DNA of 64,000 nucleotides from a virus (lineage: Duplodnaviria > Caudoviricetes). A program made the position numbers and the translations under genes. Below, piece after piece: positions 1,202 through 51,329 of the stretch. Position 1 is the first letter of the stretch; the number at the start of each line of letters is the position of its first letter. The DNA lies in the IMG/VR virus record IMGVR_UViG_3300009183_004565; one strand, 5' to 3'. The notes beneath the pieces were generated by a model that saw nothing but the letters and a program-made list of their open reading frames with translations, had not been told where the DNA came from and did not search any database.

Positions 1202-1207
1202 TAAATA
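1202..1207 (+). promoter_or_regulatory. T4-like late promoter core TAAATA
   Basis: Intergenic TAAATA 21 nt before ATG 1229; the same hexamer recurs in many short intergenic gaps (T4 late consensus TATAAATA). Confidence 0.55.
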
Positions 1208-1228: not shown

Positions 1229-2131
1229 ATGTTTATTGCTAGTTTATTTGAAAATTATATTACTGAAGCTGGAGCAAACTTAGTAGTCCTATATCCTGGA
1301 AGATTTCAACCCTTTCATTTAGGACACAGAGAAGTATTTCAATCCCTTCAAGGTAAATTTGGACGCGATAGCGTGTATATTGCCACTAGCAATAAAACAG
1401 AATTACCAAAAAGCCCCTTTAATTTCACAGATAAAAGCATACTAATGCATGCCGCTGGTATTCCTGGCGATCGCATACTTGAAGTTGCAAGTCCTTATAA
1501 ACTCCCTGCTCAGTTTGATGCTGCAAATACTATCTTTATAGCCGCAATAGGTGCACCTGATGTGCAGCGCCTGTCGCCGGACAGTATTAAAAAGGATGGC
1601 ACAGAAGGATACTTTAAAACTTTTAAAAGTATAAAAGAATGTGCTACAGCTGACAAACATGGCTATGTTATTGTAGCCGAAGAACGTCACAAAGTCATTA
1701 ACATTGCCGGACAGCAGATAGATGTTAGTCACGGCACACAAACCCGCGAAGCATGGAATTTAGTAAGAGACAATCCCAAACAACGTAGCGAATTCTTGTT
1801 ACAAATGTACGGTAGAGATGATGCAGAACTAGGGCGTGTACTGGACAAAATTGCTCGCCCGGTCACTGAAGAAGCAGCCGGAGTTGGCGTAGTTAAAAAC
1901 GGTAATGATCCACGTTATAGCATGGCCACCATGGGCAACGATAATGATGTAACTGCTGCTACACTTCCCAAGATGATGAAGGGCTACCGTTTAACAGAAC
2001 GCTATAATAAATTACAAGAAGAAATAGCATCTTTAAAAGAAAAGTGGTCAACCAAGTATAAAAAAAGCATCAACTGCAATAACCCAAAAGGGTTCAGCCA
2101 GCGAGCACATTGCCAAGGTAGAAAAAAATAA
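1229..2131 (+). CDS. HxGH nucleotidyltransferase (cytidylyltransferase-like) with N-terminal putative capsid-targeting propeptide and C-terminal basic Cys module
   Basis: YPGRFQPFHLGH motif; domain starts right after MFIASLFENYITE; C-terminal KWSTKYKKSINCNNPKGFSQRAHCQGRKK. Confidence 0.75.
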   Translation: MFIASLFENYITEAGANLVVLYPGRFQPFHLGHREVFQSLQGKFGRDSVYIATSNKTELPKSPFNFTDKSILMHAAGIPGDRILEVASPYKLPAQFDAANTIFIAAIGAPDVQRLSPDSIKKDGTEGYFKTFKSIKECATADKHGYVIVAEERHKVINIAGQQIDVSHGTQTREAWNLVRDNPKQRSEFLLQMYGRDDAELGRVLDKIARPVTEEAAGVGVVKNGNDPRYSMATMGNDNDVTAATLPKMMKGYRLTERYNKLQEEIASLKEKWSTKYKKSINCNNPKGFSQRAHCQGRKK

Positions 2132-2439
2132 TGTTACAGCACATCAAAGCTGATGTACATTGTTTATGGGACGATCATTTACCAATCTATCGCATATTTG
2201 TAGACGACGATTTGATAACAGAAAGAACATTTATCTGGCACTGTTATCGAGTTGTAATACGTGAGAATTTAGTTTGTGATTTAGAACCCGGAATACACAC
2301 ACTCAGAGTTGAAGCTGTTAATATTAGCGAAAACGGTGGCTTTAGATTTGAAAATTTTATACTCGAAGGCCGGACTGATGCGGAACATCCTAATCATCAT
2401 GATCCACAATACAAACAGATCACCTTTATTGTAAACTAA
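2131..2439 (+). CDS. hypothetical protein
   Basis: 102-aa ORF overlapping the upstream stop (TAATG). Confidence 0.6.
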   Translation: MLQHIKADVHCLWDDHLPIYRIFVDDDLITERTFIWHCYRVVIRENLVCDLEPGIHTLRVEAVNISENGGFRFENFILEGRTDAEHPNHHDPQYKQITFIVN

Positions 2440-2445
2440 TAAATA
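2440..2445 (+). promoter_or_regulatory. T4-like late promoter core TAAATA
   Basis: AATAAATA in the 28-nt gap before 2468; AGGT SD-like site follows. Confidence 0.55.
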
Positions 2446-2467
2446 CTAATTATTATAGGTAATTGAC

Positions 2468-3415
2468 ATGAAACCAACAGAATTTATTGTAGAAACTAGC
2501 CAAATTGCACAAGAAGCAGATAACATGCATGCTGACCATGAAGTACAAATGGCCAGATCTGATTGCTATAGTGCAGCCAAATACGCCATTGAGCTACATC
2601 GTATGCTTAAAGAGATCAGCGAACAACAAGGACTGGATGGCTGGGTAAGCGAAAAGATTACACTAGCAAATGATTACTTACGCTCAGTGCATGAGTATCT
2701 AGGGCACGAAATGGCACATGGTCAAGAGCAGGCCATGATGAGCTTCACTGCAGAAGCTGCAGAGTATGCCGTTGATCAATTGCTAGTAGAAGATGATTAC
2801 GATGATGCTGTGGCTGATTTCTTATCCAAGAACAAACCTACAGTAGGTAAAACACACAAGCCAAGAAAATCAGAACGTTTAGGCGGTAGTAGACATATTG
2901 GCGGTGGTGGAGAAAAAATGAAAGCAAGTCGCACAGGAATAAGTTCTAAGCCAACAGGTAAAGCTGTTGCAGGTCAAGCTAGTCTAGGCGAGGATGGCCA
3001 GAAAGGCATGAGTCGTGCTGCTAAAGGCTATGAGAAGTACGGCAAAGAGGGCATGCAAGCATTAGCCAAGGCCGGACGTGAAGGAAAAGATTTAACTAAG
3101 ATTAGAGACAAGTACAACAAATACGATAAAGGTGTATCAGAAGTGGCAATGAGTCCTGCTCCAACTCCACAAAAAAGTGGCATTCCATCAGATGCAACAA
3201 CCACAGTACCAGGAATGAAGGCTACCCCGGCTGATTTAAAGAAAGCTAACTCAAGTGCAGTTATTGGCGAAATGGCCACAGGTGGTGGATCCAGTTCGGG
3301 CGGTATTGCTACAAGCATGGGCGGCCCAGGACATAAATCAACATCGGGCGTTCCCAAGAAGGTTGGTAATGTACACAAGTCAAAAAAAATTGCAGTGGGC
3401 AAAGGCGTTTACTAA
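2468..3415 (+). CDS. modular low-complexity protein, candidate internal head protein
   Basis: N-terminus MKPTEFIVE resembles T4 internal-protein signal MKTYQEFIAE; internal LVE/LGE/VSE/IGE module boundaries. Confidence 0.65.
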   Translation: MKPTEFIVETSQIAQEADNMHADHEVQMARSDCYSAAKYAIELHRMLKEISEQQGLDGWVSEKITLANDYLRSVHEYLGHEMAHGQEQAMMSFTAEAAEYAVDQLLVEDDYDDAVADFLSKNKPTVGKTHKPRKSERLGGSRHIGGGGEKMKASRTGISSKPTGKAVAGQASLGEDGQKGMSRAAKGYEKYGKEGMQALAKAGREGKDLTKIRDKYNKYDKGVSEVAMSPAPTPQKSGIPSDATTTVPGMKATPADLKKANSSAVIGEMATGGGSSSGGIATSMGGPGHKSTSGVPKKVGNVHKSKKIAVGKGVY

Positions 3416-3975
3416 TGAGCGACATGCGTGACCTACTAGAGAAGATGTCATTTGCCGGACAGGCAGCGGGGCAAAAGCCCGGTGACCAAGTTCGTGGCAG
3501 TGAACCAATGCCTAAAAAGGGCGGAGGTAAAAAACATCCTTACGCTGGTCGTCTAGTAGGTGGCACTGATGAAAGCATTGACTATTGTGATGCATGCGAT
3601 CGTGTTAAGAGTAAATGTATCTGTGATGAAAAATCATCATTGAAAGAAGAATTTGATCAGTATCTTGCTGAGTACGGTGCACCAGGGTCTGCTATTGGCA
3701 ACGATACTGGCACTAATCCTCAAGAACAGGCAGCATTACGTCAACAACAAACTGCACAAAAACAAGAAATAAACAATCAACTTGCGGGACTAGTGGCGCA
3801 AGTAACTGGTGCACGAGCACAAATTGCACAGATTAACAAACAATTTCCTCAGGGTGCTAATCCAGTGGAAAAATCAATGGCACTAAGAGATATGCAAGGT
3901 CAAAGAATAGGTTTGCAAAATCAAATTGAAGATCTAATGACCCAAATTGCAGCATTGCGCTCACAAGCATTATAA
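3415..3975 (+). CDS. modular protein with CxxC/CxC segment and Gln-rich coiled coil, candidate internal head protein
   Basis: MSDMRDLLE start; YCDACDRVKSKCIC; QQQ-rich helix; TAATG coupling. Confidence 0.6.
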   Translation: MSDMRDLLEKMSFAGQAAGQKPGDQVRGSEPMPKKGGGKKHPYAGRLVGGTDESIDYCDACDRVKSKCICDEKSSLKEEFDQYLAEYGAPGSAIGNDTGTNPQEQAALRQQQTAQKQEINNQLAGLVAQVTGARAQIAQINKQFPQGANPVEKSMALRDMQGQRIGLQNQIEDLMTQIAALRSQAL

Positions 3976-3986
3976 GAGAGATAGAA

Positions 3987-6023
3987 ATGTTTTTAGAAGA
4001 TTTTTACAATAAAAAGAATACACCCGAAGGCTTTGGTGCTGCAGTCAGTAATGTTGCCGCAAAGGTAGGTGACACATTGGCAAATGCATTGCCAAAAGAG
4101 ATGCAACCATTTAATAACGATACTGCTGCAAAAAATTATGCAAGTCTTAGGCCAGTAAAAAATCCTGTTAAAGAGAACTCAGGAGTTACCAAGCACAATG
4201 ATTACGATCGCTGGAGTGACGAAGTTGCCGCTGCAGGTGGTGAGATACACCCGCAGCGGGATGGAAATCGTTTGGTGGCACAAAGCTGGGACGGTGACGT
4301 CATTGGTGAATTTAATCTTAGAACCAATCAAGGTTATATTAACAGACAGCAAGGTGTGGCGGAAGGCAAAGGTGATTTTGCACAAGCCATTGAAAATCTA
4401 CACGGTTGGCATGAAGTAGAATCAAACAATCCTGACATAAGAATTTGGGAGTTTGATGATCGTGAAGGCGGTCACTACGCTCAAGGAACAGTGTATTACA
4501 TTGAGAAAACTGGTCGCATACAAATAGAGTTTGAAGACCATGACGGGTATCACGGTGGTGATGTAACTGATGCTTTTGATTCCATTGGTGATGCTATGAA
4601 TGTGTTAAAGAATATCACAGTGCAGATTAGACCAAACACCGGCAAAGCACGAGATTTTGATAAACTTGGTGGAAGAACTGTTGCAGGCCCAGATGATCTA
4701 TATAAAACTGATCGTGTAGGCCGGAAAGGTACCTTGAACAAGAGTCGCATGGATGCTATGAAAACATCTAGTCCGTATCGCAAGACAGGCCCCGAAGGTC
4801 AATTACCAGAGTCTGCTTTAGCAGAAGCCACAGGTGATCCAAAATTTGACAAGATGCTTAAAGGTATTACAGGTAAAAGGAAAGTAGCCAAACAACAAAA
4901 AACAGATACCAAACAACAGGCACGTGATGCTTTTGGTGGTATGTTTGGTGGCGGTAATCCTGCTGATAAACTTGGCATCAGAAAGAAAAACGTAGACGAA
5001 GGTAGTGAACTGCCTCCTAATGTAGTAGACATGATCAAGAAAATTGCTCAAAGTACTGCAGCTCCCGAACACAAAAAGGCCATGATCAACGCCTTGATAG
5101 CAAAATATCGTGACTCGGCCATGGCAGAAACTTACGGTGCTGAGTTACATACCAAGCACAAGAAGAATAGATTCAAACAACTTCAAAAAATAAAGAAAAC
5201 ACAGAAAAAAGCATTTGGTCTAGACGAAGCTGGCTGCACAATGACCAAGGAGGGTCGCGAATGCCCAATGCATGGTTTACAGGAATGCCCTGGTTACGGA
5301 ATGATGGAAACTTCTGCACAAAATAAATTGCACCAGCGTCATCAAGAAATTAGAAAGAAAAGTGGACTGCCACATCCTGATCATTACTTAAAGATGATGA
5401 AACAAAAGCAAGCAGAAATTGATGCATTACGATCAGAGATTGCTGCAGACAAGGCGAAAGGGCTAGGCGAAGCACGTAAGCCCGACTATAACTTTGATAT
5501 AGAAGATATCAAGAAACTTGAAAAAATAAGAGACTTGTCTACGTTAAAAACGTTAGCGTTTGATTTGATCAGTAAACCTAGTGCCAAGCCAATGAAGCCA
5601 GAAAAAGTTGAATGGTTCAGATCAGCTCTAGAGCGTATGGATAGTCCACTTAAAGTTATCAAGTTGATGTACGACTTGATGTTGAGTGGTGAAGGACATC
5701 AAGTGATTGGATCACGTAACAGCATGAAGGCCAACAGCTATCGCGGACGTTTTAGCGAACAAGAAGATATTAACGAACACATTGAACGTTACGTTGAGGA
5801 ACTTGGCCGTGCCGGATATGAAGTAGTTACTGAGTCGGCTATTGCTTGTCCTGAATGTGGCGGACCTGCATACAGCAATCCAATGTTGGCAGAGAAACAA
5901 GATGCTTGTTATCATAAAGTGAAAAGTCGTTACAAAGTATGGCCCAGTGCATACGCATCAGGTGCACTAGTTCGTTGCCGAAAAGTAGGCGCCAATAATT
6001 GGGGCAACAAGAGTAAAAAATGA
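3987..6023 (+). CDS. 678-aa modular polyprotein-like protein, candidate internal head protein
   Basis: About 15 [LIVMF]-x-E sites (e.g. GVAE|G, ALAE|A, NVDE|G, AMAE|T, GLDE|A, GLGE|A, VVTE|S, MLAE|K) separate compositionally distinct modules. Confidence 0.7.
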   Translation: MFLEDFYNKKNTPEGFGAAVSNVAAKVGDTLANALPKEMQPFNNDTAAKNYASLRPVKNPVKENSGVTKHNDYDRWSDEVAAAGGEIHPQRDGNRLVAQSWDGDVIGEFNLRTNQGYINRQQGVAEGKGDFAQAIENLHGWHEVESNNPDIRIWEFDDREGGHYAQGTVYYIEKTGRIQIEFEDHDGYHGGDVTDAFDSIGDAMNVLKNITVQIRPNTGKARDFDKLGGRTVAGPDDLYKTDRVGRKGTLNKSRMDAMKTSSPYRKTGPEGQLPESALAEATGDPKFDKMLKGITGKRKVAKQQKTDTKQQARDAFGGMFGGGNPADKLGIRKKNVDEGSELPPNVVDMIKKIAQSTAAPEHKKAMINALIAKYRDSAMAETYGAELHTKHKKNRFKQLQKIKKTQKKAFGLDEAGCTMTKEGRECPMHGLQECPGYGMMETSAQNKLHQRHQEIRKKSGLPHPDHYLKMMKQKQAEIDALRSEIAADKAKGLGEARKPDYNFDIEDIKKLEKIRDLSTLKTLAFDLISKPSAKPMKPEKVEWFRSALERMDSPLKVIKLMYDLMLSGEGHQVIGSRNSMKANSYRGRFSEQEDINEHIERYVEELGRAGYEVVTESAIACPECGGPAYSNPMLAEKQDACYHKVKSRYKVWPSAYASGALVRCRKVGANNWGNKSKK

Positions 6024-6409
6024 AATACCGAGAACTGCTAGAAGCCTGCTGGAAAGGATATCATAAAGAGGGCATGAAAACCATGTTCGGAAAAAGGTAT
6101 CCCAATTGCGTTAAAAATAAAAAATCCAACGAAGACATTGATACATCTCAGTTTGCAGAATCGGAACTAGAAGAAGATTTGCACAAATGGTTTAAAGAAA
6201 AGTGGGTGCGATTTGGCCCAGATGGAAAAATTCGTGGCGAGTGTGGCGGTCGAGATGACAGCGAAGGCAAACCAAAATGCTTGCCTGCTAGTAAAGCACA
6301 TGCCTTGGGTAAAAAAGGACGTTCCAGTGCCGGTGCTAGAAAACGCAGACAAGATCCAAATCCGGAACGCCATGGCAAGGCAATTAACGTAGCAACCAAA
6401 AAGAAATGA
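6020..6409 (+). CDS. basic Cys-containing two-module protein, candidate internal head protein
   Basis: MKYRELLE|ACWKGY...PNCVK and ELEE|DLHKWFKEKW...CGG...KPKCLP; ATGA coupling. Confidence 0.65.
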   Translation: MKYRELLEACWKGYHKEGMKTMFGKRYPNCVKNKKSNEDIDTSQFAESELEEDLHKWFKEKWVRFGPDGKIRGECGGRDDSEGKPKCLPASKAHALGKKGRSSAGARKRRQDPNPERHGKAINVATKKK

Positions 6410-6825
6410 GAAATTTAATTAGACTAGTTGAAGCTGCTGAAAAAGATTGCCCCATTGCCACTCACGACATTGATGTCAATTTGAAACACAGGCAGCGAGC
6501 CATAGATGAGTACTACTACGGTCCTGCCAATCCTGACAAGCCCGGCAGCTATTGGAAAGACGCTGCTCGACGTTGGAACATAGATGAAAAAACTGCCCGA
6601 ACTATGCAGTGTGGCAACTGTGCAGCATTTGATGTTTCGGACAAGATGTGGGCCTGTATGGAAGCCGGCATCAAAGGTGATGATCAAGCCGTAGATGCCA
6701 TGGCTACTGTACAAAAAGCCGATTTGGGCTACTGTAATTTTTTACATTTTAAATGTGCTGGTACTAGAAGCTGTACTGCTTGGGTGACAGGCGGATCAAT
6801 TGATAACAAGGATCGCACCGAATGA
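6406..6825 (+). CDS. Cys-rich putative metal-binding protein, candidate internal head protein
   Basis: MRNLIRLVE|A start; CGNC, GYC..FKC, RSC motifs. Confidence 0.65.
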   Translation: MRNLIRLVEAAEKDCPIATHDIDVNLKHRQRAIDEYYYGPANPDKPGSYWKDAARRWNIDEKTARTMQCGNCAAFDVSDKMWACMEAGIKGDDQAVDAMATVQKADLGYCNFLHFKCAGTRSCTAWVTGGSIDNKDRTE

Positions 6826-7235
6826 AAACTCATGAATTCGCATCAATAAGCAAAAAGAACCGTGGAATAAAAGAATCAAGAAGTAAATCAATTGAAGACT
6901 TCAAGCCTGCCAATCAAGCCTTGGACGATTTGAAAAGCCGATATTTGCCTGATTGGGAAATGATAGATCATCAAACACTACAGGCCAAATACGTGGCCCA
7001 AGATCATAGACATGCACTAAAGTTTGTGGCATTTATAAATCAACTTTGTGAACAGATGGATCATTTTGCCGAAGTAACTCAAGATGTAGCCGAGGTTGCT
7101 GTTAAAACAGCCACGTTTGATGTAAAAGGATTGACCATACTTGATTTTCAATTGGCAATGCGTGTAGATGCTTATGCTCGAATGCATAATATTGAGCAGG
7201 TACGCATGCAAGGTAATTTTGGGATGCATCCATAA
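6822..7235 (+). CDS. pterin-4-alpha-carbinolamine dehydratase (PCD/DCoH)-like protein with degenerate His motifs
   Basis: LPDWEM...HALKFVAFINQLCEQMDHFAEV...TFDVKGLTILDFQLA matches the PCD pattern; canonical HHP and TH read HFA and TF. Confidence 0.65.
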   Translation: MKTHEFASISKKNRGIKESRSKSIEDFKPANQALDDLKSRYLPDWEMIDHQTLQAKYVAQDHRHALKFVAFINQLCEQMDHFAEVTQDVAEVAVKTATFDVKGLTILDFQLAMRVDAYARMHNIEQVRMQGNFGMHP

Positions 7236-7238
7236 CTC

Positions 7239-7856
7239 ATGATAAAAGTTTGCGATTACAACATCTTGTTGGATCCTGTCTGTACCAAACCTAATCATAA
7301 CATATTTGATTCAGAAGATTTTCGATACTACGACAAAGACGGATTTGAATTAAACCGTGCCGAAATTGGATTTTACCAAGCCATGAATTACAAATTAGAT
7401 CGATCACTTAATCATCTCTGCTTTCAACAAGACTGGCTGAAAATAAACAGTGCTGGATTGTATCTTGATCATTGTTTGATTTTACATAGATGCAGATACG
7501 ATAAAGAAGCCCAAGATCAATTGTTTACGTTACGAAAAACTATACCAGCAGCCAGCTTGGTGATGAATACCATTGCCAAATGGGGATTTGATTTTGCTCT
7601 TGATGCTGTAGATGATGACTACAATCTTTATGAAGTGTTGCACGTCGAATGCGATTACACATCATATGACAAATTTTGCCATCAGCTTGATCATGTTCAA
7701 AACAAACTAATGCAAATTGACTGGCAAGATGCTGCTCAACAAATACTCAGCAATAAAGAAAAATGGAATGGTTTAAAAGGATTCGAGCAGAATCACTGGA
7801 AGGCTAATTTTTTGCTAGGTTGGAACAAGTCAGAGTACACCGAAAAAACAATTTAA
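7239..7856 (+). CDS. hypothetical protein
   Basis: 205-aa ORF in operon; YYDKDGFEL, KWGFDFALD, EVLHVE motifs; function not recognised. Confidence 0.6.
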   Translation: MIKVCDYNILLDPVCTKPNHNIFDSEDFRYYDKDGFELNRAEIGFYQAMNYKLDRSLNHLCFQQDWLKINSAGLYLDHCLILHRCRYDKEAQDQLFTLRKTIPAASLVMNTIAKWGFDFALDAVDDDYNLYEVLHVECDYTSYDKFCHQLDHVQNKLMQIDWQDAAQQILSNKEKWNGLKGFEQNHWKANFLLGWNKSEYTEKTI

Positions 7857-7870
7857 CCAAGGAGAATCAA

Positions 7871-8014
7871 ATGGCAAAAGCATCAACTAGCGGTAAAAAT
7901 GTAATTCAAAAAATTGTAAAATTAACTAGTCAGGGCGGTCGTAATCCCAAGACCAGTGCAATGAACAAGTCAAAAAGACAGAGTCATAAACAGAGTAGAG
8001 GACAAGGTAGATAA
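7871..8014 (+). CDS. small basic protein (47 aa)
   Basis: ATG 7871 preceded by AAGGAGA SD (better than the ORF-track start 7820); K/R/S-rich, ends SRGQGR. Confidence 0.65.
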   Translation: MAKASTSGKNVIQKIVKLTSQGGRNPKTSAMNKSKRQSHKQSRGQGR

Positions 8015-8035: not shown

Positions 8036-8470
8036 ATGGAAGAATTAATCAAAACTAGTAAAGTGGCTTTTGCCAGCGAATATGCTTTTATGATCAAAGC
8101 ACAGTTTTTTCACTGGAACATAGAAGGTCCAAACTTTCCACAATATCATGAATTATTAAATACAATTTACAACGAAGTGCAGGAACAACTAGATCCCTTT
8201 GCCGAAAACATCCGCAAGCTTGGTGCATGGACTCCAGCTAGTTTTACAAGATTCAGTATGTTGAGTCAAATTGAAGATGAAACACAGATCATGCCTGCTG
8301 AAGCAATGTTGGCAGAATTGTATCAAGACTGTGAAAAAATGATCCAAATGTTTCAAGTGGTTTACATGCTAGCTGAGCAAAATAGAGAATTTGGACTAGC
8401 CAACTTCTACGCAGACCGTCAAGATGCTCACGCAAAACATTGTTGGATGCTTCGCTCAACACTTAAATAA
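8036..8470 (+). CDS. dps: Dps/ferritin-like DNA protection protein
   Basis: KAQFFHWNIEGPNFPQYHELL, QLDPFAENIRKLG, HAKHCWMLRS Dps signatures. Confidence 0.9.
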   Translation: MEELIKTSKVAFASEYAFMIKAQFFHWNIEGPNFPQYHELLNTIYNEVQEQLDPFAENIRKLGAWTPASFTRFSMLSQIEDETQIMPAEAMLAELYQDCEKMIQMFQVVYMLAEQNREFGLANFYADRQDAHAKHCWMLRSTLK

Positions 8471-46555: not shown

Positions 46556-47473
46556 ATGGAACAACAATACTTAACAGCATTGCGTGAAGTTTTAGAAACT
46601 GGAACACGCAGAGATGATCGCACGGGTGTGGGTACCATATCTAAATTTGGTATGCAGCAACGATACGATCTGTCCCAGGGATTTCCTGCTGTCACTACCA
46701 AGAAATTAGCGTGGCGGGCTTGTGTAGGTGAACTACTTTGGTTCATCGAAGGCAGTGGTAGCGAGCGCAGGCTTGCAGAACTCACACACGGCATTGCTGA
46801 CGGTAAGGCGACTATATGGACTCCCAATGCACTTGCTCCTTATTGGAAACCCCGGGCCAAATTTGATGGTGACTTGGGTCGGGTATACGGAGTACAATGG
46901 CGTCATTGGCGTACAATTAAACCGCGTGAACCAAATGCTACATTCAAAGACGGTTTTGGATCTACTTATCGTAGGATAGGTAGTGAAGTAGAATTACGAG
47001 AAGTAGACCAATTACGCCAATTGATTGACGGTATTCGCAAAGACCCATATGGTCGTAGACATATATTAACAGCATGGAATCCTGGTGAGCTAGATCAAAT
47101 GGCTCTACCACCTTGTCATTGCTTTGCGCAGTTTTATGTCTCCGACGGTCGGTTGTCGTGCCAAATGTACCAGCGTTCTTGTGATATGTTTTTAGGTGTA
47201 CCTTTTAACATAGCAAGCTATAGTTTACTAACACATATGATTGCTCATGTGTGCGGTCTTCAGGTAGGCGAGTTCGTTCACGTACTCGGCGACGCACATA
47301 TATATTTGGATCATATAGATCAGGTAAACGAACAATTGAAGCGTGAACCATTACCTGCTCCACGACTACTGCTAAGTCCGGGTATACAAGAAATCACAGA
47401 GTTTACCATGGGTGATATTGTGCTACATGACTATCAATCGCATGGTGCTATTAAAGCCCAAATGGCGGTATAA
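46556..47473 (+). CDS. thyA: thymidylate synthase (classical)
   Basis: DRTGVGT, ELLWFI, YGVQWR, MALPPCH, YQRSCD, PFNIASY, GDAHIY. Confidence 0.97.
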   Translation: MEQQYLTALREVLETGTRRDDRTGVGTISKFGMQQRYDLSQGFPAVTTKKLAWRACVGELLWFIEGSGSERRLAELTHGIADGKATIWTPNALAPYWKPRAKFDGDLGRVYGVQWRHWRTIKPREPNATFKDGFGSTYRRIGSEVELREVDQLRQLIDGIRKDPYGRRHILTAWNPGELDQMALPPCHCFAQFYVSDGRLSCQMYQRSCDMFLGVPFNIASYSLLTHMIAHVCGLQVGEFVHVLGDAHIYLDHIDQVNEQLKREPLPAPRLLLSPGIQEITEFTMGDIVLHDYQSHGAIKAQMAV

Positions 47474-50232: not shown

Positions 50233-51329
50233 GCATAATTCCTTTTTTTGGTGTTGCTAGACAATATGCAAACTTGCGAGAGGAAATACTTGATGTTACT
50301 GATCGTGTATACTCTACTGGTCGGGTTTTAGACGGCGAATACACTAGAGAGTTTGAATTACAGATAGCAAGACGATGCCAGAGAGCGTATGCACTTGCAG
50401 TCAACTCCGGCACTCAGGCCTTAATCTTTGCACAGATGGCCACCATGGATCGCCCGCCATATTCAGTTTTAATTCCCACAGTTAGTTTTGTAGCCACTAT
50501 TAATAGTGTGCTTATGAATAATCATACCCCGGTATTCTGCGATGTTGATTATAAAGGATTACTGGATCTTGATTCATATTCGTATAAGCTAGATCAAAGT
50601 GTTGGTGCAGTTATGTATGTAAATCTATTTGGTAACTGCCTTGACTGGGATAGATTCCAAATGCATACCAAGTTCTTTAATGATGATCTAGTTATAATCG
50701 AAGATGCTGCACAAAGCTTTGGTGCCAGTTATAAAGGTACGCCTAGTGGCAAGATGGGTGATGTAAGTGTGTTAAGTTTTGACCCAACCAAGAATCTAAA
50801 CAACTACGGATCGGGTGGTATGATACTTACAGACGATTTTCAAATATACGAAACCGTTCGCGGACTTAGAGACAACGGCAAAATCATACACGACACCCCA
50901 GGCACTAACAGTAAGATGAGCGAGGCTGACTGTGCTCAGATGTTGATTAAACTAGGACACTTTGACGCATGGCAGCGTCGTAGATCGGAAATTGCCAACT
51001 ACTACATACAAGAACTATATCAATACGTAGACATTCTTACTTCCAACGAAGGAGTAGAACATGCCTGGCATAAGTTTGTTATTAGAACAGAACATAGATC
51101 TGCATTAATGAGTCACTTATCATATCAAGGAATTGAAACCAAGGTACACTACGACTATGCATTATACGATCTAGGTGTAGGATTTAATTATGTAGATTAT
51201 AGTCGAGATTTATACACAGAAACAAGTACTTTTACTAGAGAATGTTTAAGTTTACCCGTATATCCTGAACTGTCCGATGCAGAAGTAGAAACTGTAGTAG
51301 AAAAAATTAAGCAGTATATAGATTATTAA
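50229..51329 (+). CDS. DegT/DnrJ/EryC1/StrS sugar aminotransferase
   Basis: VNSGTQAL, SFVAT, IEDAAQSFG, SFDPTKNL...GSGGM; ATGA-coupled start 50229. Confidence 0.92.
   Translation: MSIIPFFGVARQYANLREEILDVTDRVYSTGRVLDGEYTREFELQIARRCQRAYALAVNSGTQALIFAQMATMDRPPYSVLIPTVSFVATINSVLMNNHTPVFCDVDYKGLLDLDSYSYKLDQSVGAVMYVNLFGNCLDWDRFQMHTKFFNDDLVIIEDAAQSFGASYKGTPSGKMGDVSVLSFDPTKNLNNYGSGGMILTDDFQIYETVRGLRDNGKIIHDTPGTNSKMSEADCAQMLIKLGHFDAWQRRRSEIANYYIQELYQYVDILTSNEGVEHAWHKFVIRTEHRSALMSHLSYQGIETKVHYDYALYDLGVGFNYVDYSRDLYTETSTFTRECLSLPVYPELSDAEVETVVEKIKQYIDY

Follow-up and report, generated by a model that had tools for sequence, protein, structure and literature searches.

The internal proteins IPI, IPII and IPIII of phage T4 and its Alt protein carry a capsid-targeting sequence (CTS) and are substrates of the prohead protease gp21 (Mullaney and Black 1996; PMC9026906, PMC3012670). 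The T4 CTS is 10 residues long and gp21 cuts at L/I-X-E (PMC9026906; PMC5694885), and targeting needs hydrophobic or aromatic residues at positions 4 and 7 of the CTS (PMC9026906). Here we describe a gene cluster at positions 1229-7235 of a 64,000-nucleotide stretch of viral DNA (the window), which is the reverse strand of 15073-79072 in the 144,478-bp IMG/VR record IMGVR_UViG_3300009183_004565 (CheckV completeness 41%). The cluster centres on a 678-aa mosaic polyprotein, and its sequences lead us to conclude, with a probability of roughly 0.6, that it encodes head cargo of a T4-related jumbo myovirus, targeted by N-terminal leaders and cut by the head protease.

The cluster resembles the T4 internal proteins and Alt in having leaders of 8-10 residues that end in L/I-x-Glu (MKPTEFIVE here, MKTYQEFIAE in T4), diverse and fast-changing cargo behind a constant leader, late expression, Glu cleavage with few other determinants and, in relatives of this phage, a T4-type head module with an S77 protease. 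Unlike the T4 proteins, which are single proteins with one propeptide, the chains here hold up to about 11 modules with internal sites; the joint between modules is near-invariant, QGVAE|G (the bar marks the predicted cut), and is kept also as DNA, and P3 is often V or M. The cargo, predicted as such from its genes, has no sequence similarity to the T4 internal proteins. In the jumbo phages phiKZ, 201phi2-1 and SPN3US, cleavage after Glu is likewise common among head, inner-body and ejection proteins, at several sites in some of them, and packaged proteins are ejected into the host; their type is distinguished by an S80 protease, S/A/G-x-Glu sites with a small P3, long propeptides and a lack of shuffled mini-module polyproteins (PMC5694885, PMC10052503, PMC7411985). 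In contrast, P3 here is V, L, I or M, and by its polB and head module the lineage belongs with T4-like Rak2/GAP32-type phages. The polyvalent proteins of phages and conjugative elements (Iyer, Burroughs, Anantharaman and Aravind 2017) are reportedly large mosaics of many unrelated domains, with large enzymatic domains and peptidase domains of their own, and their delivery together with the DNA has been proposed. The modules here, unlike those, are mostly 20-150 aa and belong to no known family, and the cutting is assigned to the head protease; a single weak fold match pointed to a 'large polyvalent protein-associated domain' (E 6e-3). The Dar proteins of phage P1 (DarA, DarB, Hdf) likewise enter the head while it is being assembled and leave it together with the DNA, but they show no homology to the present proteins, and their loading is ordered by protein-protein dependence and involves no polyproteins (PMC9024508, PMC12810830). 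We found no description of the system in the literature on DUF6321 or on CTS and polyproteins in jumbo phages or metagenomes. It appears to be a variant of the T4 CTS/gp21 cargo system. The connection with cyanophages, the leaders of core proteins and the joint at the DNA level are additions of the present analysis.

The open reading frames (ORFs, named here by their start positions) at 1229-7235 and their N-termini match the listing of an earlier note on this DNA, according to which seven of the genes begin with a short peptide ending in hydrophobic-x-Glu. Five do have short leaders (ORFs 1229, 2468, 3415, 6020 and 6406), with L or I at P3 and Glu at residue 8-9 in 5/5, and two more (ORFs 3987 and 6822) have longer, less regular ones. 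The part of the claim that did not stand is the MFLE site of ORF3987, which reads MFLD in the syntenic relative of the window and hence is not conserved; judged from the two sequences, the leader of the 678-aa protein likelier runs to E14 (NTPE|G in the window and NIAE|G in the relative, L025). With a definition that was post hoc, set after the data were seen, leaders ending in [LIVMF]-x-E at residue 8-10 were found in 5/8 forward ORFs at 1229-7235 and in 11/206 other ORFs of the record (Fisher p=6e-5); under a looser rule, accepting any [LIVMF]-x-E in the first 12 residues, the counts were 6/8 and 41/206 (p=0.0017). By the rule of PMC9026906, the equivalent of residue 7 of the T4 CTS is F in MKPTEFIVE and L, I or M in the other leaders. 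The leaders are kept in relatives, in the forms MKPTEFI(V/I)E, MS(D/H)MRDLLE, MKYRELLE/MRFREITE and MRNLIRLVE/MRDLLNLFE.

Some modules occur behind both kinds of site. The KWS(T/Q)KYK.SINC module stands behind ...SLKE| inside ORF1229 and behind the leader MRATEFVAE| in another locus (L013, MRATEFVAE|KWSQKY), and the modules KWSQKYKSSINC and ACWKGY were found behind an N-terminal leader or an internal joint, the ACWKGY module following the leaders MKYRELLE| and MRFREITE|. We therefore treat leader ends and joints as equivalent sites and, given the position of the KWS module behind SLKE|, ORF1229 itself as a two-part chain.

All genes of the cluster lie on the forward strand. ORF1229 (1229..2131) encodes a 300-aa protein consisting of the leader MFIASLFE|NYITE|AG, an HxGH nucleotidyltransferase (NMNAT-like), the joint SLKE|KW and, at aa 272-300 (nt 2042-2128), a basic module of 29 aa with two Cys that is 80-89% identical to cyanophage protein modules. 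The nucleotidyltransferase was identified with Pfam CTP_transf_like PF01467 (24.4 bits vs a cut-off of 21; motif GRFQPFHLGH), and TIGR00125 and the NCBIfam NMNAT models match below their cut-offs. The 315-aa product of ORF2468 (2468..3415) has a helical N-terminal part, a Gly/Ser/Lys-rich basic tail and the leader MKPTEFIVE|T (nt 2468-2494), which is kept in two relatives (L025, L006) and is the nearest of the leaders to T4 MKTYQEFIAE (F-I-x-E). ORF3415 (3415..3975) encodes a 186-aa protein that begins with the leader MSDMRDLLE|K (nt 3415-3441) and has a coiled coil in its C-terminal part. The stop of the 678-aa polyprotein gene (3987..6023) is overlapped (ATGA) by the start of ORF6020 (6020..6409), the gene of a 129-aa basic protein with the leader MKYRELLE|A, a CWKGY...YPNC module and an LHKWFKEKW... 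module; phrog_727 matches both ORF3987 and ORF6020. The 139-aa Cys-rich protein of ORF6406 (6406..6825) begins with MRNLIRLVE|A (MRDLLNLFE|A in L020-L023), and in L004 its module is part of a 363-aa protein, where it follows ...RLSE|E. ORF6822 (6822..7235) encodes a 137-aa pterin-4a-carbinolamine dehydratase (PCD) with an 18-aa extension, MKTHEF...GIKE|S, that reads ...VINE|S in a relative (L006); the Pfam Pterin_4a match (E 7e-17), with which NCBIfam agrees, covers residues 41-117 only. The NMNAT-like nucleotidyltransferase and the PCD are the sole recognisable enzymes in the cluster, and domain and family profile searches found no protease domain in or beside it.

More than 7,800 relatives of the 678-aa protein were found in databases, most of them 60-90% identical over only part of its length. 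It is a true mosaic: the earlier description of a chain of modules was borne out, with the breakpoints of the homologues falling on hydrophobic-x-Glu sites. Among 119 homologues, 144 of 387 ends of high-scoring segment pairs lay <=2 aa from the sites, against 50+-20 for random positions (0 of 2000 random sets reached 144), and the stretch from GVAE| to the following module has given way to other modules in the syntenic relative, exactly at Glu residues. Cuts are predicted after E14 (questionable), E126, E280, E338, E381, E414, E441, E495, E597, E616 and E636; the Glu codons of the ten sites E126-E636 are at 4362, 4824, 4998, 5127, 5226, 5307, 5469, 5775, 5832 and 5892, and the last site is followed by a C-terminal 42-aa basic two-Cys module (KQDACYHKVKSRYKVWPSAYASG...) at 5895..6020. 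RFSE591, previously taken as a joint, was dropped, being weakly supported where the upstream module differs (3/16), and INE597 fits the homologues better.

Irrespective of the upstream module, the joint almost always reads x-G/S/D-[VLIM]-x-E|G/A/T, with the consensus QGVAE|G. The motif occurred within 2 residues of the ten sites in 43-98% of distinct homologue contexts, compared with 3.5% at control positions. Across the joints of the homologues, the P1 Glu, the hydrophobic P3 (V/L/I/M) and P1' are kept and P2 is free to vary, a sequence pattern as expected from a protease subsite rule. The motif count suggested in the earlier note gave a divided result: the generic [LIVMF]xE is just mildly enriched in the cluster (2.72 vs 1.98 per 100 aa, p=0.015), whereas the joint-type pattern is enriched about 8-fold and is present 7 times in the polyprotein against 0.63 times in shuffled sequences (0 of 1000 shuffles reached 7).

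An AlphaFold2 model of the polyprotein, based on a 61-row alignment, gave confident domains at residues 66-121, 129-213, 341-377, 444-490 and 501-570 and low-confidence segments at 122-128, 378-393, 406-421, 434-442, 494-497 and 589-595, with sites 126, 381, 414, 441, 495 and 591 inside the latter. In a separate model of residues 64-215, the confidence dipped at 125-128 only, and E126 is the sole invariant column of the alignment (A2). The models place the joints in short disordered linkers between confident domains. The predicted products are folded domains of acidic character and small two-Cys peptides that are very basic (isoelectric point 9.7-10.5) and could equally be DNA-bound internal proteins. 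The earlier note had seen in such products an injected payload of anti-defence or host-takeover effectors. Its first half, capsid targeting and cutting at Glu, is well supported in silico and indirectly by the virion data of relatives; the effector part was not upheld, as no module matches a known anti-defence family and fold searches with the whole 678-aa model and with the domains at 64-215 gave no secure match. The best VIA Z scores (8.6 for Med17C, 6.5 for the TriTu immunity protein, 6.1 for frataxin and 4.8 for AcrIIA11) are all in the stated noise range of the tool, Foldseek gave weak PUR/Whirly matches, and a protein atlas search returned viral hypothetical proteins only or no match.

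The canonical joint is also conserved as DNA. QGVAE|G is encoded by CAAGGTGTGGCGGAAGGC at 4350..4367 on the forward strand, the sole exact copy in the window; its 15-mer has one match there (4353-4367), with 0.02 expected. The other nine joints of the window have the peptide pattern in common only, and their DNA differs. Among 16 distinct GVAEG joints from loci that were found by protein patterns, 8 use GGTGTGGCGGAAGGC, which has a probability of about 5e-22 if the joints are independent; the codons GTG (15%) and GCG (6%) are rare here, yet used in the canonical joint. Among the matches listed for the canonical 15-mer, it is read in frame as GVAEG in 109 of 120 IMG/VR stretches and 43 frames hold two or more joints; 37 of the 71 further joints in those frames are the same 15-mer and 13 differ in the last base only, while the flanks carry no information. 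For a control 15-mer, a second joint in its frame was never seen among the matches listed, the comparison resting on multi-joint frames and codon use, as the raw match counts are uninformative. Since the synonymous positions are kept as well as the peptide pattern, both DNA and peptide constraints are to be assumed.

One idea is that the DNA word serves as an in-frame crossover point for module exchange. Canonical G[VI]AE joints were not significantly commoner where the upstream module differs (11/81 vs 24/273, p=0.2), with a crude classification of the modules. A dual joint, of which the peptide would be the cutting site of the head protease and the DNA word a conserved in-frame crossover point, so that swapped modules stay packageable and cleavable, is a speculative proposal to which we give rather less than even odds; if true, it would be a built-in combinatorial system for evolving injected proteins.

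The DNA constraint also lends itself to another explanation, by which the joints are flexible linkers and recombination scars within intact multidomain chains that undergo no proteolysis, and the N-termini are ordinary amphipathic ones. The synonymous positions of the canonical joint are indeed kept far beyond codon usage, and the joints are found in disordered linkers. We consider this explanation unlikely, however. Nine of the ten polyprotein joints differ in DNA, yet they keep the hydrophobic P3, the P1 Glu and the small P1', and among orthologous joints P2 varies and P1 and P3 do not. Moreover, leader ends and joints are interchangeable before the same module, and the leaders are concentrated in these genes and are similar to those of prohead core proteins.

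The latter similarity was observed in one of several relatives with an S77 gene. Such a gene stands in T4 order in the cultured relative Vibrio phage 2.275.O, and among the IMG/VR records with the canonical joint it is present in G007, G008 and G010; five smaller IMG/VR fragments gave no protease, and neither S77 nor Gp23 was found in G006 ('99% complete'). G007, which has a polB 72% identical to that of the window and carries the canonical-joint 15-mer, shows the gene order portal, 72-aa ORF (MILNEFFNKE), acidic core protein (MNKFEQLIE), protease, scaffold and capsid protein, the last starting with MSEQLLE...EALLE|G. On the evidence of these two starts, which belong to prohead core proteins (L277:2487-3637) beside the S77 protease (L277:3641-4273), the N-termini of the core proteins of the lineage appear to be much like the cargo leaders (cf. 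MFLEDFYNKK in the polyprotein), and the cargo leaders may mimic core-protein N-termini.

The TAAATA late cores reported ahead of ORFs 1229 and 2468 were located 27 and 28 nt upstream of them, respectively. The first (CTAAATA, core at 1202..1207) and the second (ATAAATA at 2439..2445) are both on the forward strand, and the second heads the gene run 2468-7856. TAAATA is found at -24 to -30 of about 19 genes of the record, tail-fibre-like genes among them, and within 60 nt upstream of 37/214 genes. The cluster is thus predicted to consist of late genes, with the type of promoter seen at tail-fibre-like genes.

Cutting after Glu could alternatively be the work of another cytoplasmic protease, either a host or a second phage enzyme, with the products acting late in the cell and never being packaged. 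The joint pattern shows just Glu specificity and a hydrophobic P3, no protease was found in the 144-kb record, and PCD and NMNAT would be useful in the producing cell too. We regard this as distinctly improbable, as searches of the cluster and its surroundings likewise gave no protease domain, the pattern is that of gp21-type enzymes, which are active inside proheads (PMC9026906), the late-type promoters are in common with structural genes, and relatives of two of the protein types have been found in purified virions.

Those relatives are cyanophage proteins. The C-terminal module of the polyprotein is 85-90% identical over about 40 aa to a module of cyanophage 'gp114'/S-SCSM1 ORF29, detected with tblastn in 365 phage records. 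Both ORF6020 modules are inside S-SCSM1 ORF29 (BLASTP E 1e-12 and 4e-11), where in total four small modules of the cluster recur; the WPSAYASG, CWxGY..YPNC and LHKWF..KC modules are those that gp114/ORF29 has in common with ORFs 3987 and 6020, and further cyanophage records contain the KWS..SINC module of ORF1229. Module sharing between ORF2468 and S-RIM8 gp114 was considered and rejected (E=0.44). In ORF29/gp114 the joints likewise have the form x-x-E|G/A, with GVSE|G, AMTE|G and QVSE|G as instances. ORF29 is annotated as a virion protein in its record, and it was detected in a liquid chromatography-tandem mass spectrometry (LC-MS/MS) analysis of S-SCSM1 that recovered 45 virion proteins, 13 of them with unassigned function (PMC9602691). 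Unlike the genes of the cluster, ORF29/gp114 has no CTS-like leader, is sited in a structural gene block and holds DUF6321 (PF19846), a domain that is present in P0001, P0002 and some homologues and gave no match in a Pfam search of the window ORFs.

The second protein type is the NMNAT-like enzyme. NMNAT-like or cytidylyltransferase proteins were detected by LC-MS/MS in virions of S-SCSM1, S-CBWM1, S-SZBM1 and S-CREM2 (PMC9602691, PMC10665884). The cyanophage NMNAT-like core gene has a T4-like 10-residue leader, with starts such as MKSFLQFLKE|A, MKKFSAFLTE|A, MRSFLTFLTE|A and MKKFSTFISE|A and the general form MK(K/S)FxxF(L/I)xE|A, which is a close copy of T4 MKTYQEFIAE; the NMNAT homologue of RaK2 is without this leader. 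The NMNAT-like domain of ORF1229 is just distantly related, the motif region alone aligning with the S-SCSM1 NMNAT (BLAST E 0.057). The proteome papers are silent on leaders and cleavage (PMC9602691, PMC10665884), and peptide-level data for ORF29 and ORF91 are absent from the supplement of PMC9602691. Around the NMNAT gene of S-SCSM1, ORFs 89-93 (L026:16358-21836) encode virion proteins detected by mass spectrometry, which start in a leader-like manner (MDSKTFNSLSE|A, MKSFLQFLKE|A) and contain many hydrophobic-x-E sites internally. That the proteins are virion parts outside the head (tail, baseplate or fibre accessories), with Glu motifs unrelated to head maturation, would agree with the homologous cyanophage gene, which lies between tail-fibre or terminase genes and lacks a CTS-like leader, but is hardly to be expected of a cluster whose neighbours here are metabolic and replication genes, not tail genes, whose products are small basic peptides and soluble enzymes and whose leaders are of a kind that in T4 is specific to head cargo.

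Several points weigh against packaging into the head with cleavage by its protease. For this phage, as for any phage with a QGVAE|G polyprotein, the proposal draws on sequence and models. Searches of the 144-kb record, a fragment about 41% complete, for Peptidase_S77 and Gp23 found neither, which therefore places the head module elsewhere in the genome, and it is through relatives that the phage is linked to an S77 enzyme. The leader of the 678-aa polyprotein itself is degenerate (NTPE, with T at P3), the P3 of the joints is mostly V or M and not the L/I of T4, and the leader definition, as said, was post hoc. As the canonical joint is kept as DNA, part of its constancy does not come from peptide selection. 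The cyanophage polyproteins detected in virions, S-SCSM1 ORF29 and S-RIM8 gp114, have no N-terminal CTS-like leader, and the leader therefore is not the sole route into the virion; they may belong to the head or to the tail of the virion, and the authors of the proteomes caution that abundant non-structural proteins may co-purify with virions (PMC9602691, PMC10665884). Weighed together with these points, capsid targeting and cleavage at the Glu sites are still probable.

We infer a course of targeting, cleavage, retention and injection, with a recombination role for the joint. A leader ending in L/I-x-Glu would act like the T4 CTS and dock the protein on the scaffolding core of the prohead, and a gp21-type (S77) prohead protease would remove it. 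The same protease would cut the 678-aa polyprotein and the ORF1229 product after Glu at each joint, with a hydrophobic P3 and a small P1', and so free about a dozen independent small domains and basic peptides. The basic products would probably remain with the packaged DNA and enter the cell alongside it, and QGVAE|G, kept as an 18-nt DNA word, may be the in-frame crossover point for exchanging modules between cargo genes. If the cluster is indeed head cargo, the T4 capsid-targeting principle would extend beyond T-even phages and underlie a cargo system of aquatic jumbo phages and cyanophages that is very large and shuffles fast, the related mosaic proteins in public data numbering more than 7,800. 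Such a system would explain the recurrent NMNAT-type enzymes in cyanophage virion proteomes, make of the leader and joints a simple sequence rule for predicting packaged or injected proteins of uncultured phages, and point to a large pool of small uncharacterised domains acting at the very start of infection. Cultured cyanophages have the modules and the leader too, which makes the idea testable with existing strains and perhaps with existing mass-spectrometry data.

The placement of the source phage follows from its polB and from synteny. The window polB is 50% identical to that of Sinorhizobium phage Phosso, the corresponding values being 46% for Atu_ph07, 43.5% for Vibrio phage 2.275.O and about 42% for the GAP32/121Q/CBB group, and the syntenic relative of the window lies on a 356-kb contig (L025). 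Because of these identities and the syntenic contig, the sequences identify the source as an uncultured T4-related jumbo myovirus of about 350 kb, in the Rak2/GAP32/Atu_ph07 branch.

Genes 2468-7856 form a tightly packed run in which neighbours abut or overlap. Between ORFs 1229 and 2468, a 102-aa ORF without a leader (2131..2439, +) is probably not cargo; its homologues adjoin polyprotein genes in L004, L005, L010-L012 and L020-L024. Downstream, a 47-codon ORF for a very basic protein (MAKASTSGKN...SRGQGR; 7874-8014, +), kept in the 356-kb relative (L025:12259-12402), stands between the cluster and a Dps/ferritin-like gene (8036-8470, +) that has TAAATA at -24. The polyprotein islands of many relatives (L010-L012, L020-L024) are bordered by homologues of Dps and of ORF2131, and we therefore see in them a variable island at a fixed genomic position.

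A second polyprotein, truncated by the end of the record, is encoded about 64.5 kb upstream of the window (G000 contig 143575-144478; L273:961-1863, minus strand). Its joints are KPSVAE|G (DNA AGTGTGGCGGAAGGC) and KQGVVE|N, and it also has a GNAT-like module and a C-terminal basic two-Cys module. CTS-like starts outside the cluster include MRELIELTE| of a 183-aa and MKTFDTFEE| of a 73-aa protein, at 108141-108692 and 112426-112647 of the G000 contig, which correspond to window coordinates of about -29600 and -33500. Finally, 32 of the 64,000 bases differ between the window and the IMG/VR record. Fifteen of these differences lie in a 52-nt stretch inside the thymidylate-synthase-like gene (window 47212-47263) and 7 within 82 nt near 50.9 kb (50843-50924), and both clusters look like short recombination or variant patches.

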